Of a stretch of 64,000 nt of DNA, positions 25,791-49,896 are shown one piece after another; position 1 is the first letter of the stretch, and every line of letters starts with the position of its first letter. The stretch comes from an uncultured Holophaga sp. (GTDB taxonomy: Bacteria; Acidobacteriota; Holophagae; Holophagales; Holophagaceae), in the NCBI GenBank assembly GCA_963664825.1, contig OY761614.1:2624001-2688000 (forward strand), written 5' to 3'. The notes under the pieces were generated by a model that saw only the letters and a list, made by a program, of their open reading frames with translations, searched no databases and was not told the origin of the DNA. A program made the translations under genes and the position numbers.

Positions 25791-26048
25791 TCATTCTGGG
25801 ACAGTCAGCCCACCCGCAATAAGCTCTTCCAGGCTCTTTCGCTCAACAAGCAGCCTCCGCCCGCCGTTGGGTCCGGGACGCTGCCAGATGGCCACCCTAG
25901 GCGCCTTGCGATCACAGTAGGCGGCCCGGAAGGAATCCGGTTCCATGCCCATGGCGCGGGCGGCGGCCTTCACGGGGATCCAGTTTCCTTCGGAGATTAG
26001 CTCTAGGAGATTGGCTGAATCACTGGGCAGACAGGGTCCCTGGCTCAC
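25791..26048 (-). CDS. Small HTH (excisionase-like) phage protein, copy B
   Basis: Near-identical to 16149-16406; GTGA overlap with upstream ORF. Confidence 0.6.
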   Translation of the reverse strand: MSQGPCLPSDSANLLELISEGNWIPVKAAARAMGMEPDSFRAAYCDRKAPRVAIWQRPGPNGGRRLLVERKSLEELIAGGLTVPE

Positions 26049-27232: not shown

Positions 27233-27240
27233 AATCGCTT

Positions 27241-27573
27241 CTACGCGATTTCTTTCCGGAGCCGCCCCCAGATGCGGTCAGCTTCGAGCCCTAAGGTTTC
27301 TGCCAGGACGTCTTCCACCACCACGTCACGACAGTCCCGGTTGATAACCTGATGGAAGTAAGGGTCCGTGTACCCGTGCGTCTCGGCTAGCACACGGACA
27401 TTGACACCTTTGAGCTTCAGGAGGGCTCGGACGGCTTCCGGTTTCAGGCTGCCATCCAGATTGATGCCATTCGACATGAGATGTTGAACATCCGAAGCCG
27501 TGGCTAGGATGGCTTGGGTGCTTGGAGGCAGGCCATAGGCCGCCCTCTTGCGCGGGGCTTTTTCGGGTAGCAT
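27241..27573 (-). CDS. ner: Ner/Nlp-like transcriptional regulator (unit 1)
   Basis: PEAVRALLKLKGVNVRVLA...VEDVLAETLGLEADRIW; divergent from repressor as in Mu c/ner. Confidence 0.75.
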   Translation of the reverse strand: MLPEKAPRKRAAYGLPPSTQAILATASDVQHLMSNGINLDGSLKPEAVRALLKLKGVNVRVLAETHGYTDPYFHQVINRDCRDVVVEDVLAETLGLEADRIWGRLRKEIA

Positions 27574-27660
27574 TCAAGTCTCCGATTACTTAGTTCACGA
27601 AGTGTGAACAGGAGAACAGTAAGTCTCGATAGGAAACACGTCAAGAGGTTGTTGCGCATC

Positions 27661-28398
27661 GTGAGCAAAGCTGAAATTCAGACTCCAGGCAAAAGGGTTA
27701 GACGCGCAAGGACCGCGCTGGGTAAAACTCTGGAATCTTTTGGCGCGCCAATGGAACGTTCACGTGCTGCGATTTCACGATGGGAGACGGACCAGATAAG
27801 CCTCACTGCTCTCGAAGCGGGAGCCATGGAGCACTTCCACGGCATCTCGGCCGCTTGGATCCTGAGGGGTGAAGAACCGATATGGGTTCCAGCAACCCTA
27901 GCTCCGCTAGATGATGCCGAGACCGAATATCGCCCAGTAATCCCTGGAGCCGCCTCTTGTGGGCCTGGTGGCGAAATTGCAGATCCAGGACCTTCGGCTT
28001 ACCGCCTTCCCTTCCGCAAAGACTTCCTCCAGGAGCTACTCCGCGAATGTGGAGGGGGCACCGCAGCGGATTGCTACGTTGTGGAATGCACAGGTGAGTC
28101 CATGCGTCCAACGCTCCACCCAGGAGACTTGGTGCTGATAAACACCGCGTTGGAACTGCGCGTGGAACCAGAACGGGACGCGCTCTATCTGGTACGCACA
28201 GACCCGACCAGCGTAGATGCCCGAATTAAGCGTGTCCACGTTAAGGATGATCGAATTTGTTTCGCCTCAGACGCCTCTGGATTCAAGACAATCGCGATCA
28301 ATGTGGATGGTATCCCGATCCAGCGCCTCATCCTCGGCCGCGTCTGTTGGATCGCCCGCAGTGTGGTGAAGGACGAGCGCCCAGAGCGGAACTGGTAG
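27661..28398 (+). CDS. Phage repressor, XRE HTH plus S24 peptidase (unit 1)
   Basis: SRAAISRWE HTH, WILRGE, GESMRPT Ser and IKRV Lys catalytic motifs; start uncertain. Confidence 0.9.
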   Translation: MSKAEIQTPGKRVRRARTALGKTLESFGAPMERSRAAISRWETDQISLTALEAGAMEHFHGISAAWILRGEEPIWVPATLAPLDDAETEYRPVIPGAASCGPGGEIADPGPSAYRLPFRKDFLQELLRECGGGTAADCYVVECTGESMRPTLHPGDLVLINTALELRVEPERDALYLVRTDPTSVDARIKRVHVKDDRICFASDASGFKTIAINVDGIPIQRLILGRVCWIARSVVKDERPERNW

Positions 28399-28417
28399 GC
28401 GACTCGTTCCAACCATA

Positions 28418-28629
28418 TTGACGGATTTAGAAGCCTCGCGCAGGATCCGAAGCTTACCCGCAGGATTCGTGCACCCTTTTTGACGGATTTCCGCTTCGTT
28501 ACGCGTCATCCGTCCCAAACTTATTGACGGATTTTCAGGTCTCTAGATCACCCACAAAGCCCCGCCCTTGTTGGCTTTTAGGCCATGTGCCCGAATCGGT
28601 CGTCATGCGAATTATTTCGACGGATCACA
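28418..28629. repeat. Repeated TTGACGGATTT end motifs (unit 1 repressor-side end)
   Basis: Copies at 28418, 28480, 28524 and terminal TCGACGGATCACA 28617-28629; same array at ~53747-53958. Confidence 0.75.
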
Positions 28630-28859
28630 GCGGGATTCCCCGGTGGGCCGCACGACTGGCTGCGCCCGTGTAGCGCGGCAAAATGAATCATCGGGAATCC
28701 GTCAGAATGATTGGTAGCTTTCAATCATTCTGACGGGTTTGGCCTATCGGTCTCAGCTCTCGCGACGGAAGCGGAGTCTATTGTTGAAAAGCCTCTGAAG
28801 GGCTGAACCCTGAAGGCCTCGCTGAGTGCAACATTCTTGGGGCATCCACGGGCGATCAT

Positions 28860-29430: not shown

Positions 29431-29460
29431 GAAAAAACAGGCACCCACATGGGTGCCTGA
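29431..29460 (-). terminator. Intrinsic terminator after lanA1
   Basis: Minus strand CAGGCACCCA-tg-TGGGTGCCTG followed by TTTTTT. Confidence 0.8.
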
Positions 29461-29482
29461 ATGCTGGGAAACGAACACAAAA

Positions 29483-29689
29483 TCAAATACAGGCACTATT
29501 TACTGCAATGCTGATACAAACTTGGTGGATTGAATCACAATTAAAGACTGTGTCATTGCAGTACCATGAATTACGATGCTGCGCTTCACATTTGTCTATG
29601 GGTTTGGTATACACACCACCTGCTACTTCCAGGGTATCTGCAGCGTTCAACTGCTTGAGCGTTTCCTTTGAAAGGGTGAGTTTATTCAC
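29483..29689 (-). CDS. lanA: Lanthipeptide precursor LanA1 (68 aa)
   Basis: GTG start with AGGAG RBS; leader KLTLSKETLKQL...VAGG; core with 5 Cys and 6 Ser/Thr. Confidence 0.85.
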   Translation of the reverse strand: MNKLTLSKETLKQLNAADTLEVAGGVYTKPIDKCEAQHRNSWYCNDTVFNCDSIHQVCISIAVNSACI

Positions 29690-29804
29690 GGGTTCTCCTG
29701 GAAAAAGGAAGGGGATTTGAAAATTTGCATCCAACGGATGCGTTGATTGGGGATTCTTCAGTAATTCTCCGCTCTTGCTGGGTTGCGTCAAGTTATTTTG
29801 CCCT

Positions 29805-31871
29805 CTACCTGACCGGTAGCTCGATCTCTTCCTGCTCCAAAGTCGCCTCCTCGGCCCTAGTTTCCGTTCTCCCCCCCATCATGATTTCCTCGTGGCTAGC
29901 GTAGATAACGGTCCTACCTTGGAAGCGGGGGCACTGGAGGATGCGCCGGCGGCTCAACCCATCCAGATTAGAGAGAGCCTCGTCCAGAAGCAGGAGCTGC
30001 TTGTCCGAGGCCAGGACTGCAGTGATGGCAATGAGCTGGCGCTGGCCGCCGGAGAGATTGCCGCCGCCGCTGGCCACCATGGTCTGGTAGCCCATGGGGA
30101 GGGTCTTCACCCATTCAGCCAGGCCAGTCTCTTTGGCCACCTCAAAGAGATGGGTCTTGGGTCCATCGCCGGAGAAAATTCGGAGGTTTTCCAAGATGGA
30201 GCCACTTGAGAGCTGGGGGAACTGGGGAAGAAAGACCATCAGGTTGTTGGCGGCCGCACTATCCAGGCCTCCCATACTGATGCGCCCGGTGTCGGGTGTA
30301 TAGAGACCCGCCAGGAGCTTCAGGAGCGTGCTCTTGCCGGATCCGGAGGCTCCCTTCACGTGATGGAAGGTGCCGGGTTGCACACGAAGATTGGCACCCT
30401 GGAGGATCCAGGGTGCCTTTTCCTTATAGCGAAACCACACATCCTCGGCCAGCACGGGGCCCGTGAGTTCCGTAGGACCGTTCAAAGGCGTTTGGGTCAG
30501 GCGAACCGTGGCAAAGGCCTCGTGGACCTGCGCGAGTTGAGGCCTCGCCAGTGCGATGGAGAGCACCGTCTGGCTAAGACTGGTGACGGCAGCCACGAAG
30601 GCAGCGCTCAGCTGCGAAAAGGCCAGGAGCTGTCCCAGCGAAAGTTCCCCGCCGAGCACCTTGAAACCACCCCAGATGAGAATGCAGATGCTGCTGCCCT
30701 GGCTGAGGAATTCGCAGATGGCATCAGCCCAGAGTCCGATGCGGTCCTGTCTGAGGCTGTGAGCCAGTTCCACTCCCAGCTTGTCCTTCCATCGCGCCAG
30801 CACCCAGTTCTGGCTGCCTGTCGCCTTGAGCGTGGAGGCACCATTCAGGAGTTCAGCCAGCGCGCTGTGCTCCGCCTGGCTGGCCTTGATCTGGAGGCGG
30901 GTCACGCGCGCCTGCAGGTATCCGATCACGGCAGACGCGAGGCTGAGCAGTAATGCCCCCAGAATCACGACGCCCGCTACGGTCGGCATGAGCATCAGCA
31001 TGTAAACCAAATAGGCCACCGCCGTGCAGGCATCGAAGACCGCCGCCAATCCTCGGTTGAGCACCAAGGCACGGGCCCGCTTGATTCCGCTGAAGGCCTG
31101 AAGCAGTTCGCCCAGGGTCTTGCCCTGAAGGTGCTTGAAGGGCAAGTGCAACAGGTGGTCGAAGAGACCCTTTTCCATCGCCACATCAATGCGCGCGGAA
31201 AAGGCATTCAGGGTGATATCTCGCAGCCAGCCCACCCAGGCCCTGAAGAGCGCCGTGAGAATCATCCCGATGCAGAGGATCTGGAGCAGGCTGCCTGAAC
31301 CCTTGGCCAGGGCGCCGTCCATCATCCAGGCCGTGAGCCACGGGGAAATGAGCGCGAGCCCCTGGACCATGGCGGAAGCCCCCAGGGACACCAGCAGGAA
31401 TTGCCGATGCCCCGGGATCAGCTTCAGGAGGCGCATCCAGAGCCCACCCTTTTCGGGGAAGGCTTCACTGATTTCCAGAGCTGTGCCAGAGAAGACTTCG
31501 GCTAGAGCCCTTTCGGGCACAAGGCTCGCGCCGCCTCCGTGTTCCACCAGCCACCCCTTGGCGCTTCGCTTCCGCAGGAGGATCCATTCGCCCGTGTGGG
31601 TCAGCATGAGTGTGGGCAGCTGCAGATGCGCAAGATCGCTGACTTGAGCCTGAACGCACCGGGCTTCGAAGCCGCTGACGCGGAGTTTCCGGAGCAGACC
31701 ATTAACACCTGGGGCGACATTCACGTCACCTTCGTCCTCCTCGTCCAAGGTTTGCAGGGTGGTCTTGATGCCCCGATGCACTAGGAGGCGCCAAAGGGCG
31801 ATGCGGGTGGGGAGGCCTTCCAGAACATTGCCTTCCGAACGGCTCGGCTCCAGGCTTGGTTGCTCCTTCAT
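29805..31871 (-). CDS. Bacteriocin-type ABC exporter with degenerate C39-like domain
   Basis: TMD, GASGSGKS, LSGGQRQ, LLLLDEA; N-terminal domain lacks the QxxxxECG Cys. Confidence 0.85.
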   Translation of the reverse strand: MKEQPSLEPSRSEGNVLEGLPTRIALWRLLVHRGIKTTLQTLDEEDEGDVNVAPGVNGLLRKLRVSGFEARCVQAQVSDLAHLQLPTLMLTHTGEWILLRKRSAKGWLVEHGGGASLVPERALAEVFSGTALEISEAFPEKGGLWMRLLKLIPGHRQFLLVSLGASAMVQGLALISPWLTAWMMDGALAKGSGSLLQILCIGMILTALFRAWVGWLRDITLNAFSARIDVAMEKGLFDHLLHLPFKHLQGKTLGELLQAFSGIKRARALVLNRGLAAVFDACTAVAYLVYMLMLMPTVAGVVILGALLLSLASAVIGYLQARVTRLQIKASQAEHSALAELLNGASTLKATGSQNWVLARWKDKLGVELAHSLRQDRIGLWADAICEFLSQGSSICILIWGGFKVLGGELSLGQLLAFSQLSAAFVAAVTSLSQTVLSIALARPQLAQVHEAFATVRLTQTPLNGPTELTGPVLAEDVWFRYKEKAPWILQGANLRVQPGTFHHVKGASGSGKSTLLKLLAGLYTPDTGRISMGGLDSAAANNLMVFLPQFPQLSSGSILENLRIFSGDGPKTHLFEVAKETGLAEWVKTLPMGYQTMVASGGGNLSGGQRQLIAITAVLASDKQLLLLDEALSNLDGLSRRRILQCPRFQGRTVIYASHEEIMMGGRTETRAEEATLEQEEIELPVR

Positions 31872-31872
31872 A

Positions 31873-34008
31873 TCACCCACGGCCCGCCTCCATGGCCATA
31901 ACGATCTCTCGGAAGGCGCCTGCCTGTTTGGAGAGTGCAGCATAGGTCCCCTGCTGGGCGATGCGCCCATCCTCCAGCACCAGGATTCGATCCGCGTCCT
32001 TCACGGTTTCCAGGCGATGGGCGATGACAATACGCGTGCAGCCCAACCTTGCGAGATTGGCGTGAACTCTCGCTTCTGTCTCCAGATCCAGGGAACTGGT
32101 GGCCTCATCCAGCAGCAGGATGGAAGGCTCCAGCGCCACGGCACGAGCCAGGCAGAGGCGCTGTCGCTCACCCCCACTGAGGGTCTTGGCGTTTTCCCCC
32201 AGACGGCTCTTGTAACCCTGGGGTAGCTTGGAGATCACCTCGTGGATATGGGCGACTTTGGCGGCCCACTGCACCCGCTCCATGGGCAGCTTGGGATCGC
32301 GCAGCGCCACATTGGCGCGCACCGTGTCATCCAGCAGAAAGCTGTCCTGCATCACCACGCCCATCTGGCCCCGCAGTTTCTCGAGATCCAGAGTCCTGAG
32401 GTCCTGGCGATCAAAGCGGATGGTTCCTTCCGTGGGTAGATGCATACCCATAAGCAGACGCGCCAGGGTGCTCTTGCCCGCTCCAGTGCGACCCACAAGG
32501 GCAACCTTTTCTCCGGGTCCCAGAGAGAGAGAGATGTCCTGCAGAATCCATGGGGAGCCTTCCGCATAGCGAAAGCTCACACCCTCCAGATCGATGCGCC
32601 CCATTAAGCGACCGGGATCGACGCTCCCCGAGGCTTCCGGCGCGCTCTCCATCACATCGTCCAAACGCAGCAGGTGGCTGGTGAGAAACTGGAGGTCCGT
32701 AATGGCGCTGAGCATGGATTCCAGAGGGCCCATGTAGAGGCCCTGGAGCGCAAGAAAGGCGGTGAAGACGCCCAGTGTCATGCGCTCACCCAGCACTTCG
32801 CGGCCTCCAACCCAGAAGAGAGCCGCGGTGGCGAGCCCCTGCAGAATGCCCATCAACTGGCTGGAAGTGATGGCCAGCTTTTGGCGTTCCATTGAAACGT
32901 TTGTGCGGCGCACGAGGCGCGGAATCCACCGAGCCAGAACACGGTCTTCCGAAGCGGAAGCCTTGATGGTTTCAAGGCTTCCCAGGGCCTCTGTGAGGAT
33001 GGCACCCTCCTGACCCGAGACGGTGAGTTCCGTGGTCATCAGCTGCTGGTTTTGCTGACGAATGACCAGTAACAACACAACCCTCAAGGTGGAAAGCCCC
33101 ATAACTAAGAGGCCCAACTGCCAATGGTAGGCCAGCATAAGCGAGGAATAGCCAAGGAGCAGAAAGACATCCAGGATGGCGGAGACGCTACGGCTGGAAA
33201 AGAGATCCCGGATCTGGGCATTGCTCTCCAGGCGTTGCATGAGATCACCCGACTGGCGCTGGAGGAAAAAGCTGAGCGGCAGGTTGATGAGATGGGTGGT
33301 GAAGCCCTCCATCAGTTGCTTGTCCATGCGGTTCTGGAGCCCCTGCAGCACATAACTGCGGAGCAACCCCAGCAGGAGCTTGGCTACCAGGGCCAACGTA
33401 AGACCCACTGCAAGTCCCCATAACCAAGGCTGGTAGTGGGGCAAAAGCACCCGGTCCACCAGGACCTGACTGGCCACGGGAAATATCAGACCCACAGCCT
33501 GGAGCATGAGGGAAGCCCCCAGGAGCTGCACGAGACTGGGCCGAACGCTCCGCAGGATTTCCAGGTAGCGGCCCAAGCTTGGGAAGCGCCGCTTACGCTC
33601 GACAAAGTCGTTATCGGGAGCGAACACCAGCGCCACTCCCGTAAATGAAGTTCGAAATTCCGCCCAAGTGACGAAGCGCCTGCCCATCCCAGGATCCACG
33701 ATATGGACGCCCCTGGAGGTGATGCGCTCCAACACCACGAAATGCTTGAACTCCCAGTGGAGAATTGCGGGAAGAGGAAGATCCCGAATGTGCTCCACCT
33801 CCACCTTCACGGCCTCGGCCTCCAGGCCAAAACTCCGCCCAGCTTGAAGGATATTGGCGGCGTTGGCGCCATCCCGAGAGACCTTGCAGGCCTCGCGCAC
33901 CTCTGGAAGGGGCGCATGATGGCCCCAATAGCCCATCACCATAGCCAGCGCGGCGGCGCCGCACTCCACCATTTCCATCTGGGGGACGTAAGGAACGCGG
34001 TGCATCAC
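31873..34008 (-). CDS. lanT: Peptidase-containing ABC transporter (C39 PCAT, LanT-like)
   Basis: PQMEMVECGAAAL, LHWEFKHFVVL, GRTGAGKS, LSGGERQR, LDEATS. Confidence 0.93.
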   Translation of the reverse strand: MMHRVPYVPQMEMVECGAAALAMVMGYWGHHAPLPEVREACKVSRDGANAANILQAGRSFGLEAEAVKVEVEHIRDLPLPAILHWEFKHFVVLERITSRGVHIVDPGMGRRFVTWAEFRTSFTGVALVFAPDNDFVERKRRFPSLGRYLEILRSVRPSLVQLLGASLMLQAVGLIFPVASQVLVDRVLLPHYQPWLWGLAVGLTLALVAKLLLGLLRSYVLQGLQNRMDKQLMEGFTTHLINLPLSFFLQRQSGDLMQRLESNAQIRDLFSSRSVSAILDVFLLLGYSSLMLAYHWQLGLLVMGLSTLRVVLLLVIRQQNQQLMTTELTVSGQEGAILTEALGSLETIKASASEDRVLARWIPRLVRRTNVSMERQKLAITSSQLMGILQGLATAALFWVGGREVLGERMTLGVFTAFLALQGLYMGPLESMLSAITDLQFLTSHLLRLDDVMESAPEASGSVDPGRLMGRIDLEGVSFRYAEGSPWILQDISLSLGPGEKVALVGRTGAGKSTLARLLMGMHLPTEGTIRFDRQDLRTLDLEKLRGQMGVVMQDSFLLDDTVRANVALRDPKLPMERVQWAAKVAHIHEVISKLPQGYKSRLGENAKTLSGGERQRLCLARAVALEPSILLLDEATSSLDLETEARVHANLARLGCTRIVIAHRLETVKDADRILVLEDGRIAQQGTYAALSKQAGAFREIVMAMEAGRG

Positions 34009-34011
34009 GGG

Positions 34012-35283
34012 CTACTCCAGCCAGCGTCGCAGGGGATCCAGCACGATGGTGATGAGGCGCTGCCGCCGCAGGGTAAAGCGAGCCGAAAGTAGCATACCGG
34101 GGCGGATCTTCACACCCGAGAGACGCTTGGAGCGCTCGGGCTGCAGTTCGATCTCCACGCGATAGGCCGGCGTATCCAGCTTGCCTGTTTCTCCAAGGGC
34201 TTCCTGGATTTCATACTGAGAGGCCAGATCAGACCCAATGCGCGTGACGCGGCCTTTCAAGGTGCCAAACTCCGTGAAAAGATAGGCCTCCATTTCCAGC
34301 AATACCTGATCGCCCGACTTAACGAAGGCCCGGTCCTTTTCGGGCAGGAAGGCCACCACCTGCAGCGGCGAGTCCTCAGAGATGATCTTGGCGATGGTCT
34401 GCCCCGGCTGAAGGAGATCCCCAGGACGCGCCACCAAAGCCTCCAAAAAACCCGCTACTGGCGCCAAAACATTCGTCTGGCGCAGCGAGGAATCCAGGGC
34501 ATCCCGCTTCGACTGGGAGCCATTCAGATCCTGGAGCCGTTGCCACTGGTTGCGTTGCCGCTGGCTCTCAAGAGTCGAAAACTCCTGGCGAAGCTGCACC
34601 ATTTGCTGCTTCGCACTATCGAGTGTGCGTAGGGCCGCATTGAGTTGATCCTGAGCCTCGTCTAGATTGATGGGTGCCACCAATTTTTCCACGAGCAGTC
34701 TGCGCGTAGCTTCCACTCTCTTTTCCTGGATTTTCACAGAACTCTCAAAGCTTTTCACTTGCGTGTCCTGATGGACAAGCTTCGTCTGCACAGCTCGAAG
34801 TTGTTCCTGGAGCAACTTGTCTTCTCGCTCGGTGAAGGTTTCCCCCTGGGAGCGCAGGAGCTGCAATTGGCGATCCGTTTCCAGGATGGCGCCCTGCACC
34901 TGGGCCGAATCAATGCGGGCGATGGGCTGGCCTTCCCTCAATGTATCGCCACTGTGAGCATAGGTCTCGGCCAGCACTCCCCCAACCTGAGCCTGGATCA
35001 GGCGCACACCCGCTAAAGGGTGCAGAATCCCCTTGCCCGTATCTTGCACTTCCACTTTGCCGAGGATCGCTGCCAGAAGGGCCACCAGCAAGACGCTTCC
35101 GAGGGCGAAGAAGAGCGACCAGGTCCAGGGAGGCGAGACCCGCAGGGGCTCGCGGATATCCTCATTCTTCATGAGATGTTCGAGAGCTTCCTGACGGAAA
35201 ATGGACGAAGAGGGCTGGGGATCGGATTCCAATGGGGCTCCGGGAGGTATGCGCTTTAAGAAAATAGTCACTGACACAACCAT
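34012..35283 (-). CDS. HlyD-family membrane fusion protein
   Basis: IFRQEAL, single TM, coiled coil, LAPVAG, FGTLKGRV, IRPGM. Confidence 0.9.
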   Translation of the reverse strand: MVVSVTIFLKRIPPGAPLESDPQPSSSIFRQEALEHLMKNEDIREPLRVSPPWTWSLFFALGSVLLVALLAAILGKVEVQDTGKGILHPLAGVRLIQAQVGGVLAETYAHSGDTLREGQPIARIDSAQVQGAILETDRQLQLLRSQGETFTEREDKLLQEQLRAVQTKLVHQDTQVKSFESSVKIQEKRVEATRRLLVEKLVAPINLDEAQDQLNAALRTLDSAKQQMVQLRQEFSTLESQRQRNQWQRLQDLNGSQSKRDALDSSLRQTNVLAPVAGFLEALVARPGDLLQPGQTIAKIISEDSPLQVVAFLPEKDRAFVKSGDQVLLEMEAYLFTEFGTLKGRVTRIGSDLASQYEIQEALGETGKLDTPAYRVEIELQPERSKRLSGVKIRPGMLLSARFTLRRQRLITIVLDPLRRWLE

Positions 35284-35327
35284 CCAGGTTGCAGGGGGTT
35301 CACAATCTGGACGCCTTGATAGCTTGG

Positions 35328-38300
35328 CTATTCTACCTTGGCTAGGGTAGCGTTTTTGGCCTTCTTCCGCTGCCGAGCTAGGCGGGATTCGTAGAGGCGA
35401 TCCAGGAAATCGTAGATGACGAATTCTTGGTTCCGCTGAGCGGAGCGCAGGAGGCGGTTCACGTGCATGTGCGTGAAGCTGGGAGCCAGTTCCGCCCGGG
35501 TGCTCGTCAGGCGGCCTTGCGCTTCCAGATCCCGCAACCGTTCCCAGCAGGATGCCAAAGCCTTGTCCCGCCGATCCAGGATGGCGAGCCCCGGCGCCAG
35601 GACTTCGCTCTGGTTTTCCTCACAAAGAAACGCCTCCAGCTCCTTGCGGAGCTTGCGGAACTTGTCCCCCAATTGCACGTCCAGCCCGCGCTTGCTGCTG
35701 AACTCTCGGCCAAAGCCCTCCCTGGCTTGATGGATCAGGTGGGCCTTGGTCCCGAAATCGAACGCCATGCCATCCAAAAGTCCATCCACGGCCTTGAGAC
35801 CCAAGCGCCAGCGGAGGTCCGCGCCACTATCACCCGGATAGGCCTGCACCAGTCCCAGAATGGCCTGGCTATCCCGCCAGAAAAATTCTTCCGCCAGCTC
35901 GATGCCCGCGGAGCCGCCATAGCGCTCCAGTTCACGCTCGTAGGTGTCAAGTTGCACCTTCCAACAGAGACCTTCGATCATCAGTGGCGCAAACCGTTCG
36001 TAAATTTTGGGCTGAAGCTTTGTGGTGAGTGCGCGGGAATCACCATGGAAGCGAAGGCGCAGATGATGACCCCCCTCGTTGTAGCGGATGAAGAACCAGC
36101 GGTCATAGAGTTCCTGGGTTGCTTCCAGTAGCGGCGCGATGTGGTTGGCCAGTATCTGGTCAGCAGTGCTGGTGCCGGTATAGACCTTGAGATAGAGCCA
36201 TTCCGAGCCCGGTAGGAAGTTGCGCACAGTTTGGGTTTGCGCCGGGTGGGCAGGTTGGGTTTCGGCGAAAATCGACGTTGAACCCTCACTCTTGGCGAGT
36301 GAGGGTGTGAGGGGGGCTTCCCGCAGAAAGGGCACCACCAGTTCGTGGCAGAACCGCCCTTCGGGCCCTGTGGCCAGAAGGCAATCAGGCTCGGGAAAGC
36401 ATTCCTGCAATTCGAAGGCAGGTCGCTTGGCCACAAGTCCCAGGAGGGTTTCCAGCCAGAGGAGGTTTTCCAGGTCCACCAGCAACGTGTTGTCACCGTC
36501 TGCCAGGAGCACCATGCGGGGCAGTTTCCGCTTCTCGCGCCAAGCCTGAAAGAGGGCGAAGAGTTCCGCCCCCTTGGCCTCCTGGATTTCCTTGAGTTCC
36601 TTACTCTCCACGCGCCACTTGGCCTTGCAGAGGATGTGGCGTCCCTTTCGCACTCTGGGCAGGAAGGGCAGACCGTCCAGATTCCCCCAGGTCCAACCGC
36701 TATTGATGGCGTACTGATCCTGCATCCGACAGAGAAAGCGATAGACCCCAAGGCCCCTGGAATAGTTGTGGGCCGTGCTGAGACGGGGCATGATCTCCTT
36801 CTTCAACCGCTCGGAGCGCAACACCACACGATCACCCACCACGGAGACCTGAAGATCCTGGAGGGGAATCTGAAACCCATCCTCGGCACCACTCACGCCC
36901 AGGAAAGGGATCTCGTAGCCGCGGAGCAGGGGGCGACACAGAATATTGCCCATGCGTCCCTCGGGCAAATGGACGATTTCCGCGAAAATAGCATCCGGTG
37001 CCAGGGCCTCTTCGGCCGCAAGATGGGCCTTCACGGCCTTCTCCAACCGCAGATCTCCGTGGCAGAAACGCCCCAGGAGCCTCGCGCCGGAGGGCCCCGA
37101 AAAGTGCTCGAGCAGCATCTCGAATTCTCCTGCATCGAGGGCATCATGCGAACGAGCCGCCAGCACGGGCAAGGCGGCGAAGGCGTCCGGATAGTTCGGC
37201 GTATCGGCATTTTTCAAGGTCTTCAGATCATCGGAAGCCAGATCCCATTCTTCTTCCCCAGGTTTGGCCATGAGGTGCTTTAAGAGATAGAGCTCCCGAA
37301 CCGTGAAGGGAGCCCCCCCCTGTTCCTCACGCCCCGGAAAGGCCAGGCCTTCCAACAGCGGTGCCCCTTCGGCGCCAGGAGCATTCCCGCTCTCGAACCC
37401 GATGCCGCTTTCGTCGTCCAATACTTCCAGGAGGGAAATCCAGCGGGATTCGTAACGTTCCCTGAAGGAGTCGATGAATCGCTTCATGGAGTTGCCGCCC
37501 CTGGGAGGTGCCAGACAACGCAGCAGCTCGATGCCCTCCTCGATCTCCCGGCGAACCTTGACGCTGAGCCGCGCATCAGGCGCTGGCTTCACCAGATCCA
37601 CCTGGAAGAGATGCTTGAGCTTGATCTTCGCCGGCAGGGCCTCCAGATCCTTGGCCAACTGCCGGTAGGTTTCGGGAATGCGTGCACATGTATTTGCATC
37701 CAGAGCCTCGATGCGCTCCAAGGCCGAACCCAGTTGTTCCCCCAGTTCCTGGGTATCGGAATGCCCCTTCAGCCGTGCCACCACCCCATGGATCGGCTCC
37801 TCTCCTGTCACCGCCGGATAGAGATTCGACACCAGCACCTGGTTATCGATCAGCTCGTGGATGTAGCTGCTGGCATCCTCGTAGCTGACTTCCTCTTCCA
37901 TCAAGGGACGGGCCAGCTCCTCGATGGAAACCCCCACCTTGGCGCGCTCCAGGGTGGCTTCCAGGTAGGGTGTGGGCTCCAGGGCCACCAGGTGATAATC
38001 TCGGCCCCGCTCGGCGCTGAAGCGCACTTCCGCATACCGAAGCCGTCCCGCGGCGGTGTATAGGCTTGTGTTGGGCCGGTATCGCAGGGTGCCCCGCACC
38101 ACAGGATCTTTTTCCAGCGCTTCGACCAGGGAGCAGAGATAGTCCATATCCAGGCGCGTATGACGAAGACCGGTCTCCATTCCTTCTACTTTCAGCAGGC
38201 TATCCTCGCCCCAGACCCCCGTAGAACAGCCCGAGAAGAGTCCAAAGGGCGTAGAACGCGAGGCCATGCGGGACAAATACCGCACCAGGCTCCGCTCCAC

Positions 38301-38582
38301 GCGATCCTGCTTCTCTCCCGTCAACTTGCCCTGAAGCCAGGGATCCAACATCTCCTCCATATCCGGGGAAGCCACGAAAATGGCCTCCCGAATTTCGGAG
38401 CGCTGAAGGGCGGCGCGCAATTTGCTCCGCATTGCATCGCGATCCGCTTCCAGCGCAAAGGCCAGATCATCGACCCCTGCATGAGGGCCGTGCAAATCCA
38501 AGGACCAATCCGTCAGGAAATCATAGGGAAGGGCTGGGGTGCGAAAGGCAAAGAAGGGTTCTGTCTTGAACGTATGGGTCAC
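35328..38582 (-). CDS. lanB: Class I lanthipeptide dehydratase LanB (glutamylation plus elimination domains)
   Basis: RTPALP, YLSRMASRSTPFGLF, LLGRF, LPRVR, EWLYLKVY, WFFIRY, HLRLR, YERELERYGG, HMHVNR. Confidence 0.95.
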   Translation of the reverse strand: MTHTFKTEPFFAFRTPALPYDFLTDWSLDLHGPHAGVDDLAFALEADRDAMRSKLRAALQRSEIREAIFVASPDMEEMLDPWLQGKLTGEKQDRVERSLVRYLSRMASRSTPFGLFSGCSTGVWGEDSLLKVEGMETGLRHTRLDMDYLCSLVEALEKDPVVRGTLRYRPNTSLYTAAGRLRYAEVRFSAERGRDYHLVALEPTPYLEATLERAKVGVSIEELARPLMEEEVSYEDASSYIHELIDNQVLVSNLYPAVTGEEPIHGVVARLKGHSDTQELGEQLGSALERIEALDANTCARIPETYRQLAKDLEALPAKIKLKHLFQVDLVKPAPDARLSVKVRREIEEGIELLRCLAPPRGGNSMKRFIDSFRERYESRWISLLEVLDDESGIGFESGNAPGAEGAPLLEGLAFPGREEQGGAPFTVRELYLLKHLMAKPGEEEWDLASDDLKTLKNADTPNYPDAFAALPVLAARSHDALDAGEFEMLLEHFSGPSGARLLGRFCHGDLRLEKAVKAHLAAEEALAPDAIFAEIVHLPEGRMGNILCRPLLRGYEIPFLGVSGAEDGFQIPLQDLQVSVVGDRVVLRSERLKKEIMPRLSTAHNYSRGLGVYRFLCRMQDQYAINSGWTWGNLDGLPFLPRVRKGRHILCKAKWRVESKELKEIQEAKGAELFALFQAWREKRKLPRMVLLADGDNTLLVDLENLLWLETLLGLVAKRPAFELQECFPEPDCLLATGPEGRFCHELVVPFLREAPLTPSLAKSEGSTSIFAETQPAHPAQTQTVRNFLPGSEWLYLKVYTGTSTADQILANHIAPLLEATQELYDRWFFIRYNEGGHHLRLRFHGDSRALTTKLQPKIYERFAPLMIEGLCWKVQLDTYERELERYGGSAGIELAEEFFWRDSQAILGLVQAYPGDSGADLRWRLGLKAVDGLLDGMAFDFGTKAHLIHQAREGFGREFSSKRGLDVQLGDKFRKLRKELEAFLCEENQSEVLAPGLAILDRRDKALASCWERLRDLEAQGRLTSTRAELAPSFTHMHVNRLLRSAQRNQEFVIYDFLDRLYESRLARQRKKAKNATLAKVE

Positions 38583-38803
38583 AGGTTATTCCGTAAAATA
38601 ATCATTTAGTAGGCTTAATATCATGGCGCAATCCCATTATTATGGGGACCAAGTCCAAGACGCATTTCGAGTTGATGGTCGAAGTGGTCGCGTAGAGCTG
38701 CGCTGTCGGAGTTTGGCCAGTATCACAATACTAAACCGAGCCGGGGAGGGCGGGCGCCCCTCCAAACACAGCGCTTCATTCAACATCCATTAATCATGTA
38801 TAT

Positions 38804-38837
38804 AACAAAGTGCCGCCCAGTGTTAACTGGGCGACAC
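38804..38837 (-). terminator. Stem-loop/terminator between lanA2 and lanB
   Basis: Minus strand GTGTCGCCCAGT-taac-ACTGGGCGGCAC then TTTGTT. Confidence 0.7.
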
Positions 38838-38882
38838 CCCCCCCGGTAGGGGACCAAATGTCATGCCACTCCTACGCGACTA

Positions 38883-39053
38883 TTAGCAAAAATTATCCGT
38901 ATGCACACAGGTGTAGGCGGCATCGTAGGTTGGCCCCATATTCTTCTGGCAGGTGCAAATTGTATCGGGACCTTTCTTGCTTCCTCCAAACACCAGAGTT
39001 GCCTCATTCGAGGATAGGTGAGCCAGAGTCTCTTTATTAAGTTTAAGCGTCAT
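38883..39053 (-). CDS. lanA: Lanthipeptide precursor LanA2 (56 aa, not in ORF track)
   Basis: Hand translation MTLKLNKETLAHLSSNEATLVFGG-SKKGPDTICTCQKNMGPTYDAAYTCVHTDNFC; AAGGAG RBS. Confidence 0.88.
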   Translation of the reverse strand: MTLKLNKETLAHLSSNEATLVFGGSKKGPDTICTCQKNMGPTYDAAYTCVHTDNFC

Positions 39054-39466
39054 GATGTCTCCTTGGAGATTGCCCCTACTTAGGGGGTGGGTTGGTTGGG
39101 TATGGAGAATAATTAGGTCGAAAAATTACACTTCGGCTGACTATGTCTCCGATTGTCTGGGATCAAGACGTTTGTTCACAGTAACTCACTAAAATCGGCG
39201 AGAGTCAAATGGAAATCTGGTTCTTGGCTATTGTGCATGTGGCTGTAAGTCTCCACCCGTTCAGACAGGCTTCACCGTGCTTCCCATGCGCTGTCTCGGG
39301 CGCTATCGGAGGCACCCAAGGGACTGCGAAACCAGGCCGGAGAGCAGCCTCGCCTGGATCCACTCAGCTTTCATCCGACTGCTGTGACCAGAAGTTCGGC
39401 GGCTTGAGGAGACCAGCATGATTTTGCAGACACCCTCTGAGGAGGATTTTATTGGGCTCTTTAGGC

Positions 39467-41094
39467 GTATCGATTCACCCCCCCTTCAGGTTCAACTCGT
39501 GATTGAGGGGGGGGGAATCACTGCAAGTGAATAATTTACTTGTACTTCGGTCTCAAACCAGTCAGATTCTAAAGGATGGAGCTTGATCCCGTTCTGACTG
39601 ATCCGCGTTATCTGGCGCTGGCTGCCGAGAACGGGGAACTGCGTGCGGAAATGACTCGCCTGCGGGAGACGATGGAACGTCTGGAGAAGCTGCTGGAGTC
39701 CCTCCAGGAGCGGCTCGGGAAAGACAGTCGCAACAGCAGCAAGCCTCCCAGCTCGGACGGGCCCGCAGCACCGCCCAAACCACCGATGCCGCCCACGGGG
39801 CGCAAGCGCGGCGGCCAACCGGGACGGAAGGGGTCCGCTCGGGTGATGTTGCCGGAGGGCAGCGAGGATCGGACCGTGGCGGTGCCCCTCGCCTGCTGCC
39901 CCCACTGCCGCGGCGAGGTTCCTTCAGGGGCCATCACCGGGACGCGCCTGCACCGGGTGGTGGATCTGGCTCAGCGACTCACAGATGTCATCGCTTACGC
40001 GCTGGAGGAGGGCATCTGCCCGCATTGCCAGCGAAAGGTCCGGGCTGCACTGCCACCGGAGGCCGCGCCCGGCGGGATCGGCCCGCGCCTCCAGGCTGCG
40101 GCGGCCTATCTGCGCACGGAGGGCCGCATGAGCCTGACGCCGCTCCAACGTTTCCTCTCGGAGGTGACGGGCGTAGCGGTCTCACGCGGTTGGCTGCATG
40201 AGAGCGGCGTGGCCCTCGGGAACCATCTGCTGCCCGCCTGGGAGGACCTCTCCCAGCAGATCCGTACGGCGGACGTGCTCAACCTCGACGAGACTGGCTT
40301 TGGGCGGAAGGATCGGGACTGGATTTGGGTGGCCCTTTCCGCCCGCACGGCCCTCTTCCACTTCAGCGACACCCGTGGGGCGAGGGCCCTGACCGCGATG
40401 CTTCCCGAGGATTTCAGTGGCGTCATCGGAACGGACCGGTATGGCGCCTACAACGCCTTGAAATCTGCCGTTCGCCAGTTCTGCTGGGCCCATTTGCGCA
40501 GGGAGTTCATCGCCCTCAGCGAATCCGCGAAGCCCGAGGTGGCCGCGCTGGGGAAGCGCCTCCTGACCGAGCAGGAGGAGGTCTTTGCGCTGTGGCACGC
40601 CTTCCGGGCCAACGAGATCAGCCGCAAGGATCTGCGGGCCTGCACCGCCCTCAATCTGGCGCGGCTCAAACGCGGCCTGATCCAGGCCAGCACGATGGAA
40701 CACAGGGCCGCCCGGAACCTCGGGAAGGACCTCCTCCGAAAATGGGACAAGCTCTGGGTGTTCCTGAAGGTCGAAGGCGTGGAACCCACCAACAACGCCG
40801 CCGAGCGCGCCCTGCGCCCCCTCGTGATCCTCAAGCGGATCTTCCAGCGGCTGCCCAGCGCGGACGGAAAGCGATTCTTCGAACGGCTCCTGAGCCTGGG
40901 CACCACCGCCCGCATTCGCGGCGTCCCCTACTTCGACTGGCTGCTCAAGGCCCTCCACGCTGCCCAATCGAATCAGCCCCTACCGGCACTGGAACCGGCC
41001 TGAGGCTGACAGGACAAGCGGTACATCACCAGCCCATCACGGGTGGCTGCCACCGGCTTACGCGGTCGCTGGGACAAAGGGGGTGAATCGATAC
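39467..41094 (+). mobile_element. IS66-family (single-ORF, ISBst12-like) element, 8-bp TSD CTTTAGGC
   Basis: GTATCGATTCACCC/GGGTGAATCGATAC IRs; TSD 39459-39466/41095-41102. Confidence 0.93.
39576..41003 (+). CDS. IS66 transposase TnpC
   Basis: NSSKPPSSD, CPHC x2, LDETG, QFCWAHLRR, TNNAAERALR. Confidence 0.93.
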   Translation: MELDPVLTDPRYLALAAENGELRAEMTRLRETMERLEKLLESLQERLGKDSRNSSKPPSSDGPAAPPKPPMPPTGRKRGGQPGRKGSARVMLPEGSEDRTVAVPLACCPHCRGEVPSGAITGTRLHRVVDLAQRLTDVIAYALEEGICPHCQRKVRAALPPEAAPGGIGPRLQAAAAYLRTEGRMSLTPLQRFLSEVTGVAVSRGWLHESGVALGNHLLPAWEDLSQQIRTADVLNLDETGFGRKDRDWIWVALSARTALFHFSDTRGARALTAMLPEDFSGVIGTDRYGAYNALKSAVRQFCWAHLRREFIALSESAKPEVAALGKRLLTEQEEVFALWHAFRANEISRKDLRACTALNLARLKRGLIQASTMEHRAARNLGKDLLRKWDKLWVFLKVEGVEPTNNAAERALRPLVILKRIFQRLPSADGKRFFERLLSLGTTARIRGVPYFDWLLKALHAAQSNQPLPALEPA

Positions 41095-41153
41095 CTTTAG
41101 GCGGGGCCTGAAGGCTGCGTTGGGTAAGAACTTAGGGAAATGAAAATCCGCGT

Positions 41154-42470
41154 TCAAAGGTGGTCCGGCAGACTGAGCATCATGAACCGGTCCCATTTGG
41201 GCTCGATGCCCAGCGCCGCCAAAAGCGCCAAACCCGCTCCCGCTGCTCCTTCCAGCAGGCCTGGATCCGGCTTGTAGGGGTTTGTGTTCTCCTTGGCCTT
41301 GCCCTCCGCGTCCATCTCGGGCTTGTAGGTGGTGTAGCCCGCGAAAGGACCACCGGGATTGCGCGTGCCGATGAGATGTTCCAGGTACATCTGAGCGGCC
41401 TGGCGGAAACACGCCTCGCCTGTGAGTTGGAACAGGCGCTGAAAGATGAGTACATTGCCCGCGCTGCCATGGCAGAGAGAGATATCGCGCACACCCGACG
41501 TCTCCAGGGGACGTGCGGCAGCCAGCCGTGCCATGTCGAGGGCCTTGGCTTCCCAGTCTGGCCTGCCCGCTAGGTGGGCCGCGTTCAGGATAGCCAGCGA
41601 AGCGCCGAGGTCGCCATAGCACCAGGCTACGCGGCCTGCGTGGGGTTCCACCTCTGGCCTTTCCTGTTCCACGGGGCACCAGCTCGGCAGGTACGATCCA
41701 CTCTCCGGAGACTGGAACTGGCTGAAGAGCCACGCCATGCCTCCTTCCAGGAGCTTCGTCACTCGCCGGGAATCGATCTCTGGATGCTGCTGGCCCACCC
41801 TACCCATCGCGGCAAGAAGCAACAGAATCCCCGGTACACCATGGGCCAACCCCAGGTTCAAGTAACCCTGAGGGGCCAGCTCCCGCTGCCAAGTGGGCAG
41901 CAGCCCGGGCGCCGTGGGCCAACTGTGTCCCGTGGGGCGGGGCACAGCCAAGGCTTCCAAATGGTCCAAAATTCTGGCCAGAACCTGTCTGGCCCCAGGC
42001 CTGGACAGGCGTTCCAACGCGTAGACCCCATAGCCCACCAGACCTGAGATTAGGTCGTAACCGTCCCGCCATGGGCTCGGCGCCAGGAGGTCTTGCAACA
42101 CCTCATCCACACCTTCGTTTGCGTCCTCTTCCTCGGTATCCTTGAAAACTTCTTGCTGCAGATGCTCTATGGCCCAGGCGATGCCCGAATAACCCGAATA
42201 GAATTGCGCTCCGGGAGTGCGATCCACCCGTTCCACCGCTCGGCTCAGCATATCCATGGCCCGTTTCTGGAGCGCTTCCCGACCCGAAAGTTTGGAAAGA
42301 TAGCCCAGGTAGAGGGCCGTCCCTGCCGTACCTCCGGAAAGACATGGATGTGTCTGCTCGGCGTCGAAATCCAAGGCCAGAGCCAGTTCGTCCAGGATGG
42401 GCAAGATGGATGCGCGTTGGGATTCGGAGGCCAGGGGAGGCCAGGTTGAGCGGGTTAATGTGCAAAGCAT
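41154..42470 (-). CDS. lanC: Lanthionine cyclase LanC
   Basis: DLISG, LGLAHGVPG, AWCYGDLG, SLCHGSAG Zn ligands, GLLEGAAG. Confidence 0.95.
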   Translation of the reverse strand: MLCTLTRSTWPPLASESQRASILPILDELALALDFDAEQTHPCLSGGTAGTALYLGYLSKLSGREALQKRAMDMLSRAVERVDRTPGAQFYSGYSGIAWAIEHLQQEVFKDTEEEDANEGVDEVLQDLLAPSPWRDGYDLISGLVGYGVYALERLSRPGARQVLARILDHLEALAVPRPTGHSWPTAPGLLPTWQRELAPQGYLNLGLAHGVPGILLLLAAMGRVGQQHPEIDSRRVTKLLEGGMAWLFSQFQSPESGSYLPSWCPVEQERPEVEPHAGRVAWCYGDLGASLAILNAAHLAGRPDWEAKALDMARLAAARPLETSGVRDISLCHGSAGNVLIFQRLFQLTGEACFRQAAQMYLEHLIGTRNPGGPFAGYTTYKPEMDAEGKAKENTNPYKPDPGLLEGAAGAGLALLAALGIEPKWDRFMMLSLPDHL

Positions 42471-42573
42471 GGGGACCTCACAAAGGGAATTCCGGCCTGG
42501 CGAATCGATGGGCAGTTAGGAAGGCCATTCTCTTGGGAAAAGACAAGGAGCATATTCCGACAGGGCCAAGGGT

Positions 42574-42675
42574 TTAGAAACAGTTTACTGGAGTGTAACG
42601 GATTTCCGTTTCTTCGCGGAATAGCGTGAGGCAACCCACCTCCAGCCGGGACAGAGATAAACGGATTGCCTTCAT
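42574..42675 (-). CDS. Small 33-aa precursor-like peptide upstream of lanC
   Basis: AAGGAG RBS; MKAIRLSLSRLEVGCLTLFREETEIRYTPVNCF matches LxLx(R)x5L; no double-Gly. Confidence 0.5.
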   Translation of the reverse strand: MKAIRLSLSRLEVGCLTLFREETEIRYTPVNCF

Positions 42676-42730
42676 ACAGTAACTCCTTGGCATCCGATCA
42701 CGGGTTTGGAGGCGGACCTTTCTAGTGCGG

Positions 42731-43440
42731 CGGAGGACGAGGATCTCGCCAAGGAATGCTACCGGCAGACCTTCCTTCAGCACGGCATTCGGCCTGGGGA
42801 ACTGACCCTGCATTCAGACCGAGGCCCTGCCATGGTTTCCAAGACGGCGAGTGTCCTCCTCACCGACCTGAAGGTCACGAAGAGCCACAGCCGACCTCAT
42901 GTTTCCGATGACAACCCGTATTCCGAATCGCAGTTCAAGACGCTCAAATACAGCCCCGGCTTCCCGGAGCGATTCGGTTCCATTGAGGATGCGAGGAGCT
43001 TCTGTCGCCGCTACTTCCACTGGTACAACCACCAGGACCGGCACAGCGGCATCGGCATGATGACGCCCGCCAGCGTTCACGAAGGCCGCGCCAAGGAGAT
43101 CCGCGCTGCCCGGCAGATCATCCTCGATCAGGTCTTCCAGGCCCACCCCGAGCGGTTTTCCAAGGGATGCCCGAAACCACCGGCCATTCCCAGCCCGGCG
43201 TGGATCAATCCTCCGAAAAAGGAAATCGCAGCATGATGACCTCTGGCTGTTGCGAGGTGTGGGAAACGCGCAGCGTTTTCCAAGGGGCCGAGGTCAGGCT
43301 GCGGACCCGAAGGGCGGGCCATCGGCCCGTTGCCGCCAGGCAATCCGCAGCCTGTCCATGGCCCCGGCGCCTCTTCGCAGCGGGTTGGGCCAAGTGATAA
43401 TTTAGGCAACTTTCTGTCTCAAAGTCGTTGACGCGTTCCG
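42731..43440 (+). pseudogene. IS3-family 3' half (partial transposase plus right end)
   Basis: EDEDLA...DNPYSESQFKTLKY...WINPP; end TGTCTCAAAGTCGTTGACGCGTTCCG identical to 16748-16773. Confidence 0.85.
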
Positions 43441-43473
43441 AATCGGGGAAGAGCGTTTTGGTGGGACACAGGC

Positions 43474-43510
43474 CAACAAAATAGCCTCGAAGGTCGAGGC
43501 TATTTTGTTG
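43474..43510 (-). terminator. Intrinsic terminator after lanA3
   Basis: CAACAAAATAGCCTCGA-agg-TCGAGGCTATTTTGTTG. Confidence 0.8.
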
Positions 43511-43526
43511 TGGAATTATAATTTAA

Positions 43527-43730
43527 TTAATTACATTTTTGCGCGGTAACAACTGGGTGTTTCGTGAAAGTGTTTGTTTCGCAGCCTAAACCATCGTTGC
43601 TTACCCCGCAGTTGAACAATCCGCCTGGTCCTGATGAATACTGTTTGTCGCCTGTATCCCCTCCTGCAATTTCCGTTTGCTGTGTGGCGTTTAGTCGAGA
43701 GATTGTTTCCTTGTTTAACTTGAGCGCCAT
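43527..43730 (-). CDS. lanA: Lanthipeptide precursor LanA3 (67 aa)
   Basis: GGAGGAG RBS; MALKLNKETISRL...EIAGG leader; core with 3 Cys and 8 Ser/Thr. Confidence 0.85.
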   Translation of the reverse strand: MALKLNKETISRLNATQQTEIAGGDTGDKQYSSGPGGLFNCGVSNDGLGCETNTFTKHPVVTAQKCN

Positions 43731-43909
43731 GGCTCCTCCGATCATGTCCCGTCTGGGACTTGGGTTGATTGTTGATTAACTTATCCGTGTTTGTCTGAAC
43801 TTTCAATATGGAAACTCGTGCCGATTCATTGTTCCAAGCCGAAGTTCCATAGTGAACCAGGCGGAATCCCCATGATCCACAAGGCGATTTTGTGAATTTA
43901 GGAATTCAG

Positions 43910-48290: not shown

Positions 48291-48305
48291 GTTTGCCAGA
48301 GCGAC

Positions 48306-48329
48306 AAAAAGCCCCGCTAAAGCGGGGCT
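48306..48329 (-). terminator. Intrinsic terminator after antirepressor operon
   Basis: Minus strand GCCCCGCT-tt-AGCGGGGC then TTTTT. Confidence 0.7.
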
Positions 48330-48349
48330 GATTGTAAGGGTAGAGCGCG

Positions 48350-49680: not shown

Positions 49681-49896
49681 GAACAAAGGATGCCCTGCCA
49701 CGGATTCCGGTCAAGCGAAAATCCGTCAAAAAGATTGGTAATGCCTGTCAGGACTCTGAAACGGTGTGATCACATGTGGCATCTCGTTCCTTAACTCGCC
49801 CAATGGTAATGGCCCAGTGTTTCCAACCTGTTGCCCGTATTGGTGACATGCAAACTGGCGATGCGCATGGGTTTCCTCCTTGTGAGATGTGATTAA

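Follow-up and report, generated by a model that had tools for sequence, protein, structure and literature searches.

Three dissimilar double-glycine precursors around the only LanB/LanC pair of an uncultured Holophaga: a class I lanthipeptide cassette and its relatives in the Holophagaceae

The viridisin (vds) cluster of Thalassomonas viridans encodes three lanthipeptide precursors with a double-glycine (GG) leader, two of which were modified by VdsBC, and thalassomonasin and Ped15 of Pedobacter are cited as comparable systems (PMC9680876). The leader type LxLxKx5L/GG, in combination with a C39 protease, marks a class I subtype of Bacteroidetes (PMC7268733), and GG leaders of this type were noted earlier in myxobacteria (PMC3951391). 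Here, we analyze a cassette of this kind in a stretch of 64,000 nucleotides (the window) from an uncultured Holophaga sp. (GCA_963664825.1, contig OY761614.1, positions 2,624,001 to 2,688,000), whose complete genome of 3.47 Mb is designated G000. Like vds, it joins one Gram-negative class I LanB/LanC pair to three GG precursors with different cores (PMC9680876), and a class I pair with three such precursors has a partly tested precedent. Unlike vds, it belongs to the Acidobacteriota, has its precursors at three separate places, one of them between lanC and lanB, is accompanied by a fourth, distal candidate, and has relatives with genome-wide precursors and kinase operons. The window cluster by itself is an ordinary new class I member with three new cores, and the family-wide layout is the interesting part.

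With the Bacteroidetes subtype the window shares the leader motif, the GG site, and the C39 exporter, whereas its LanB shows 23 to 33% identity and forms a separate clade; the listed rows of the supplement to PMC7268733 contain none for Holophaga or Geothrix. The Acidobacteriota lanthipeptides tested so far belong to classes II and III according to PMC13083261, and the accessible part of PMC13642348 does not mention Holophagae. In searches of the open-access literature, mostly article listings, we found no report of Holophagaceae lanthipeptides, genome-dispersed class I precursors, or operons combining lanA with LytS/LytTR genes.

A preliminary description of the window had proposed a class I cluster with LanC, LanB, HlyD, and two ABC exporters, and all of these genes are present and intact at the place indicated. 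They lie on the minus strand in the order lanA3, lanC, lanA2, lanB, hlyD, C39-ABC exporter, second ABC half, and lanA1, with insertion sequence (IS) debris of the IS3 family between lanA3 and lanC and a plus-strand IS66 element between lanC and lanA2 (Table 1). The precursor genes at the start, middle, and end of the cassette are intact open reading frames (ORFs), each with a ribosome-binding site (RBS). In a second study (run X3), near-identical contigs span lanA1 and lanA2, which argues against a chimeric assembly there.

LanB matches PF04738 (E 6e-159) and PF14028 (E 8e-68), has 5ehk, 9g04, and NisB as its best solved relatives, and retains all eight motifs conserved across 33 LanBs, which we take to correspond to the catalytic residues of NisB. 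LanC retains GLAHG, WCYG, and CHG, the ordinary Cys/Cys/His zinc set; WCYG and CHG align with NisC and 8byk, and CHG occurs in 16 of 16 listed LanCs. A single-sequence fold of this protein had a mean predicted local distance difference test (pLDDT) score of 53. In the exporter, the Gln, Cys, His, and Asp catalytic positions of the C39 domain align with those of LahT 6mpz (E 8e-35). Census of the whole genome returned one PF04738 and one PF05147 match, and LanM (PF13575) gave no match in G000 or in genera g5, g10, and g11. Since this is the only lanB and the only lanC of a complete genome, the simplest reading is that one pair acts on all three precursors, as had been claimed, and we infer substrate tolerance of the pair. 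The genome also carries two tRNA-Glu genes and several OEP (TolC-type) genes. Judging from these sequences, we consider it quite probable that all three precursors are substrates of the window LanB/LanC, and the mobile cassette is probably functional.

In the mechanism that we propose, by inference from class I chemistry, LanB would bind the LxLxKET leader, glutamylate Ser and Thr residues of the core with Glu-tRNA, and eliminate to yield dehydroalanine and dehydrobutyrine. The zinc cyclase LanC would add Cys to the dehydrated residues, the C39 domain would cut after GG, and three different polycyclic peptides would leave the cell through the ABC pair, HlyD, and a TolC-like channel whose gene lies elsewhere. 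Leader binding, Glu-tRNA-dependent dehydration, and zinc-dependent cyclization are established class I steps (PMC9993889). Action of the exported peptides between cells would be the least certain step.

All three leaders have the Bacteroidetes-type pattern LxLxKx5L...GG that had been attributed to them, here in the form LxLxKETxxxL...GG. A genome scan with NF038153 matched lanA1, lanA2, and lanA3 only, the last with 34.5 bits (cut-off, 22), and a larger leader profile gave the window precursors 29 to 34 bits, compared with 14.8 for the best match in a reversed-genome decoy. As described, the precursor genes are AT rich (42 to 46% GC; enzyme and transport genes, 58 to 62%; whole genome, 64%). 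The three core sequences are those given in the preliminary description, and they are indeed dissimilar, with a pairwise likeness no greater than that of shuffles (z -0.4 to 0.8). Every Cys is preceded by a Ser or Thr at 1 to 9 residues, a spacing compatible with three to five mostly sequential rings per core, and the net charges are -1, 0, and -1 (median over 80 family cores, 0). A Pfam search of the three precursors gave no match, and searches of protein collections with lanA1 and lanA3, which reach short peptides poorly, returned no homologue or only the query itself. Against sequences in the PDB, two cores had no match and the third only chance-level ones (E 0.26 or more), and four short core motifs are absent from the listed rows of the precursor table of PMC7268733. 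Each lanA also has a short hairpin just 5' of its RBS, with a C/A-rich stretch before the hairpin (29690-29760, 39054-39120, and 43731-43800). Similar hairpins lie 5' of precursors in genomes G026 and G041, and those of the lanA genes possibly constitute an mRNA-stabilizing leader.

A fourth candidate GG peptide gene, 984 kb from the cluster (G000:C1:1668924-1669103), encodes a divergent leader and three Cys. A profile-free scan, devised after this candidate had been seen, found exactly four precursor genes in G000 and none in the decoy; earlier regular-expression and profile searches had given three. The candidate had no match in 132 family genomes. Its locus (G000:C1:1668924-1674330; L333:4925-10330) contains an AT-rich VKOR-thioredoxin gene, IS1595 and ISL3-like remnants, a broken second hlyD (96% identity), and an internally deleted exporter duplicate. 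Possibly, the window enzymes may serve this distal peptide in trans.

The history of the cassette can be read in part from two named Holophaga records, L005 and L006 (G-numbers denote genomes, L-numbers other loci), whose LanBs are 82 to 83% identical to that of the window. L006 has the same five core genes at about 80 to 86% DNA identity, with four different precursors and a second lanC, and no precursor was seen in the examined sequence of L005, which has the same core. Between the window and L006, the ratio of nonsynonymous to synonymous substitution rates (dN/dS) is 0.05 to 0.13 for all five core genes, indicating that these are under purifying selection. The gap between lanC and lanB is 30 to 35 bp in L005 and L006, and a contig of run X4 joins position 38570 to 41164; hence, the 2.5-kb block containing lanA2 is an insertion. 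The flanks of the L006 cassette map near 1.54 Mb in G000, about 1.1 Mb from the window cassette, which is located between two Mu-like early-region remnants and beside two tRNA-Ser genes. These differing genomic sites indicate that the cassette is mobile. The comparison thus points to a conserved enzyme and export core around which precursor genes are gained and replaced, probably with the help of IS elements. A common mobile-element end around all three precursors was sought and not found; the element ends near them are the IS4 relic at lanA2 and one 5' of lanA3 that we presume to be ISL3-like.

Two further claims held only in part. Each precursor had been credited with its own downstream hairpin; those of lanA1 and lanA3 are terminator-like, whereas that of lanA2 is a decayed IS4-family left end, sharing 80% identity over 55 bp with the left end of an element of this family found elsewhere in G000. 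The restriction of IS elements to the spaces between genes had been regarded as a sign of selection; the positions are indeed intergenic, but this lies near the background of the genome. Naively, with 9.5% native intergenic DNA, the odds of intergenic-only insertion are 0.009 to 0.0009 for two to three events. However, among the other IS66 copies, 11 have a detectable target duplication, and 6 of these also interrupt no ORF, which brings the odds to about 0.16 to 0.30 and makes IS position weak evidence of selection. Genome-wide, no ORF is interrupted by 25 of 33 full-length IS copies, a tally that undercounts ORF interruptions since ISL3 and IS256 ends are inexact. The dN/dS values are the better evidence of selection on the cassette. 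The IS load of G000 is heavy, with 16 full-length IS66, 13 ISL3, and 4 IS256 copies matched.

The layout in the family was assessed with a leader profile built from 35 leaders and searched against 133 Holophagaceae genomes, the same from which the leaders were taken. It matched in 25 of the 133, and the matches, when read out, were short precursors with Ser/Thr/Cys-rich cores. G081 (97% complete, two contigs) has 17 distinct precursors with one LanB, two LanC, and no LanM; in G080, 24 of 25 matches are precursors (one weak Cys-free match was dropped), in G077, 14 of 15 (two loci are duplicates, one copy of which runs on), and G078 and G007 have 10 each, one of those in G078 with a core of just 13 residues. 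All five genomes have one LanB match, one to six LanC matches, and no LanM. The 80 family cores represent 60 core families, with no core family occurring twice in G081 or twice in G080. In genus g10, 18 orthologous core pairs, picked by eye, keep 610 of 762 residues (80%) and 76 of 79 Cys, the LanBs of the genus being 77 to 91% identical; unlike the window and L006, species of g10 share cores. The GC content at third codon positions is 0.41 to 0.51 in the window precursor genes versus 0.87 to 0.93 in those of g10. One kinase-linked core of G081 resembles the lanA3 core (z 7.6, the best of 80 comparisons, Gly rich), which is a lead only.

Phylum-wide, the leader was matched in 19 of 401 genomes. 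Two of these, from other Acidobacteriota families, have the same leader without a neighboring LytS kinase: G361, with 18 dispersed precursors, one LanB, and three LanC, and G287, with 28 dispersed precursors but several synthetases. Taken together, these genomes make it likely that a single tRNA-dependent LanB, together with one or a few LanCs, would mature 10 to 24 or more dispersed, unrelated lanthipeptides, a class I counterpart of the prochlorosins in Holophagaceae and some other Acidobacteriota. Satellite lanC genes lie beside precursors and away from lanB in L331 (G007:C38), L329, L113, and G008; with one LanB, up to six LanC matches occur in G007, and G008 has nine LanC matches. Cyclases may be specialized per peptide while LanB is shared.

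In the prochlorosins and synechococsins, a promiscuous synthetase (ProcM, SyncM) acts on scattered precursors with a conserved leader and hypervariable cores, for which signaling has been suggested (PMC10783134, PMC12328550), and a CCG zinc motif has been linked to ProcM-type promiscuity (PMC12328550). The likeness, a single enzyme facing a genome-wide scatter of many unrelated cores, is found in G081 (17), G080 (24), and G078 (10), whereas G000 itself has three clustered precursors and one distal candidate. The differences are a class II LanM, a Nif11 leader, and CCG there versus a tRNA-dependent LanB plus a LanC with CHG here, and the conservation of many g10 cores as orthologues between species. 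The largest class I set listed in PMC7268733, 10 precursors in one Tumebacillus cluster, has FxLD-type leaders and is not dispersed.

The neighbors of dispersed precursors in G081 and G080 include LytS-type sensor kinases (PF06580) and LytTR regulators; among 48 neighbor proteins, no enzyme for ribosomally synthesized peptides with posttranslational modification (RiPPs) other than LanC was found (no radical SAM [rSAM], YcaO, or LanM domain). Precursors lie within 2.5 kb of a LytS-type kinase in 10 of 17 cases in G081, 8 of 24 in G080, 10 of 15 in G077, and 7 of 10 in G078 (per-genome binomial P, 7e-6 to 0.011; the genomes are kin). For 16 of 17 precursor-near kinases, lanA is immediately 5' on the same strand. 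This suggests that the lanA-kinase-regulator sets of these relatives are pheromone-receptor operons. For the sensor region of one G081 kinase paired with the core of the precursor gene 5' of it, a complex prediction scored 0.01 and gave no answer either way.

Precursors directly 5' of kinases are often Thr-rich tailed (L312, L317, L319, L122, and L123), like the Cys-free peptides of a branch of LanBs that lack a cyclase. A LytS-type kinase is present at 25 of 25 loci fetched around these cyclase-less LanBs, and 10 of 15 loci examined yielded a gene for a Cys-free peptide with a Thr tail. The LanB at such loci (L125-L149, e.g., L128, L129, L141, and L146) is full length and stands alone, and most of the genomes concerned have no LanC match; in genus g7, LanB is found in 40 of 62 genomes and LanC in 3 of 62. 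The LanB gene is divergent from the LytS kinase/LytTR pair, with the peptide gene in between, an arrangement that we regard as a candidate module for signaling by linear dehydro-peptides. The cyclase-less clade is sister to the window LanB clade, which comprises G000, L005, L006, G054, G041, and G026 (approximate likelihood-ratio test, 99.5; distant Bacteroidota root). Within the latter, a kinase and a regulator stand beside the cluster in G026 and two regulators in G041. In Bacteroidota, a LytS-type kinase occurs at 71 of 76 LanB loci, a set biased by the retrieval motifs. The kinase link is likely to be old in Holophagaceae and missing from the subclade of the window.

The comCDE, blp, and agr systems are three-gene peptide-pheromone cassettes of Gram-positive bacteria. 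The relatives of the window resemble them in having a GG-peptide gene directly 5' of a membrane histidine kinase and a LytTR regulator, with ComA-like export. They differ in the Gram-negative host, the lanthionine chemistry, the several cassettes per enzyme set, and the LytS-type (PF06580) kinases, and the cognate kinase/LytTR arrangement is not found at the window cluster. Signaling proteins beside RiPP precursors have also been noted in Bacteroidales (PMC10352776).

For the window peptides, signaling or signal interference is the function to which we lean. Three points favor it over antibacterial action, namely, the neutral or acidic cores, the failure to see an immunity gene, and the tie between these peptides and receptors in the family; it remains below an even chance because no receptor lies near the window cluster. 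The reported lack of LanI/LanFEG-like genes was borne out, the neighbors of the cluster being IS and Mu-like remnants, and no FxLD leader, LanP, LanI/LanFEG, or LanRK was found among the scanned ORFs. A scan of 24.5 to 54.1 kb for RBS-led membrane or lipobox ORFs, which is insensitive (RBS dependent, known transporters unlisted), gave only an antisense ORF and an IS fragment.

Three observations speak against signaling. No LytS-type kinase occurs within 258 kb of the window cluster; none of the 11 G000 kinases falls in the group of 19 peptide-linked kinases, and in 6 of the 11 the sensor regions are only distantly related; and in other Acidobacteriota 0 of 37 precursor loci have a LytS-type kinase within 1.5 kb. 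The group of 19 has a bootstrap of 47, and one linked kinase groups with those of G000; monophyly of the peptide-linked kinases is unsupported at this value. Taken to its full extent, which we do only tentatively, the signaling reading would hold that Holophagaceae maintain a one-LanB library in which, in several genera, each peptide is the pheromone of a lanA-LytS kinase-LytTR operon, a multichannel lanthipeptide quorum sensing in a Gram-negative lineage. The cyclase-less branch would make linear dehydro-peptide signals, and the window cassette would be a mobile, receptor-less offshoot that collects precursors, a possible signal donor or jammer.

Products of class I lanthipeptide clusters are often antibacterial. 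The window might accordingly encode ordinary lantibiotics against Gram-positive or other neighbors, the diversity of which would widen the range of targets while a Gram-negative producer would need no immunity gene. Such a role would suit a mobile cassette whose island also holds phage remnants and type I restriction genes and whose genome has no cognate receptor, but the cores are neutral to slightly acidic and the kinase linkage in relatives is unexpected for simple toxins. On inspection of the cores, neither of the two lipid II motifs given in PMC7268733 was seen, and the accessible part of PMC9680876 describes no function for the Vds peptides. On balance, we consider antibacterial action on other taxa unlikely, and neutral cargo more unlikely still.

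Several observations weigh against the conclusion that the window LanB/LanC modifies all three precursors in a functional cassette. Both lanA1 and lanA2 remain below the NF038153 cut-off and have leaders that deviate at position -7, and IS debris parts lanC from lanA3 and from lanB, by which transcription may be disturbed. At the family level, 16 of 16 genomes with at least three leader matches have LanB and LanC, which speaks for the conclusion; this tally, however, is partly circular because the profile derives from the same genomes, and one leader match each was also present in 5 of the 104 genomes that lack a LanC match. It is conceivable, though improbable, that there is one true substrate and that the other precursors are IS-captured passengers, poorly modified or silent, in a cassette starting to decay in an IS-rich island. 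This would be consistent with the late insertion of lanA2 next to an IS4 relic, the breaking of the operon by IS66 and IS3 debris, precursor genes that are AT rich unlike those of g10, a distal hlyD/exporter duplicate that is already broken, and the L005 core with no precursor seen in its examined sequence. It accords poorly, however, with three intact ORFs with RBS, full leaders, and Cys/Ser/Thr-rich cores, with purifying selection on the core genes, and with relatives that keep many precursors per LanB and conserve orthologous cores across species. That the peptides are GG cleaved and exported but mainly disulfide bonded or modified by another enzyme, with LanB/LanC acting on few residues, seems very unlikely: the fourth candidate adjoins a VKOR-thioredoxin gene and lanA2 matches TIGR04149 (rSAM-modified GG peptides) as weakly as NF038153, but the three precursor genes lie around lanB/lanC, odd Cys counts (5 and 3) occur in two of the three cores, and no rSAM, YcaO, or LanM was found among the 48 neighbors of dispersed precursors.

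The features of the cassette are collected in Table 1. With the NHLP ABC1/ABC2/HlyD trio (TIGR03796, TIGR03797, and TIGR03794) it shares a C39-active half, a C39-dead half, and a fusion protein in one operon; it differs in that its proteins all score below the curated cut-offs and its leaders are short and not of NHLP type. An Rfam scan of 28 to 46 kb gave no match. The Mu-like remnants (25791-28631 and 47798-53960) contain a repressor, a ner-like gene, and a truncated transposase, with gemA and an antirepressor on the right, and 27931-28631 repeats at 53257-53960 with 79% identity. To their right, in 54076-64000, the two tRNA-Ser genes precede a locus for type I restriction-modification (hsdM, YhcG/DUF1016, and hsdS), and a 923-aa AAA ATPase with what we take to be a PHP-like N terminus is also encoded there; this region is possibly a defense island. 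Left of the island, a DUF6765 gene and two large PAS-domain histidine kinases (13051-14454 and 18439-24548) lie among IS elements.

Table 1. Features of the lanthipeptide cassette, in window coordinates (aa, amino acids)
Feature	Position	Strand	Remarks
lanA3 precursor	43527..43730	-	67 aa; 24-aa GG leader; 43-aa core with 3 Ser, 5 Thr, 3 Cys
Hairpin 3' of lanA3	43474..43510	-	17 bp, terminator-like; region folds at -26.2 kcal/mol
IS3-family debris between lanA3 and lanC	42594..43442		NF033516 match below cut-off; ~120 bp of native lanC upstream DNA retained
lanC cyclase	41154..42470	-	438 aa; PF05147, E 5e-41
IS66 element, full length	39467..41094	+	8-bp target duplication
lanC-lanB insertion block, as compared with L005, L006	38599..41137		Holds lanA2, IS4 relic, later IS66
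lanA2 precursor	38883..39053	-	56 aa; 24-aa GG leader; 32-aa core with 1 Ser, 5 Thr, 4 Cys
Hairpin 3' of lanA2	38781..38833	-	Decayed left end of IS4-family element
lanB dehydratase	35328..38582	-	1084 aa; glutamylation and elimination domains; motifs intact
hlyD, HlyD-type membrane fusion protein	34012..35283	-	
C39-peptidase ABC exporter	31873..34008	-	PF03412; closest solved C39 domain LahT 6mpz
Second ABC half-transporter	29805..31871	-	688 aa; degenerate C39-like N terminus; NHLP ABC2-like partner
lanA1 precursor, GTG start	29483..29689	-	68 aa; 25-aa GG leader; 43-aa core with 4 Ser, 2 Thr, 5 Cys
Hairpin 3' of lanA1	29438..29459	-	Intrinsic-terminator-like
Sigma-70-like promoter match 5' of lanA1	29764..29791	-	4 matches found versus 4.1 expected from shuffles

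Extreme natural substrate tolerance has been documented mainly for class II enzymes (ProcM, SyncM). If our reading is true, a class I LanB/LanC clade in which each LanB has up to about 24 natural substrates would offer a new engineering tool. It would also serve as a test bed for how unrelated ring patterns are handled when dehydration depends on tRNA and cyclization is left to a separate enzyme. What prochlorosin-like libraries do has long been an open question, and a candidate receptor in the same operon as many of the precursors would make signaling testable pair by pair. More generally, the findings point to an overlooked RiPP family in anaerobic Acidobacteriota that would be missed by mining restricted to the surroundings of cyclase genes.

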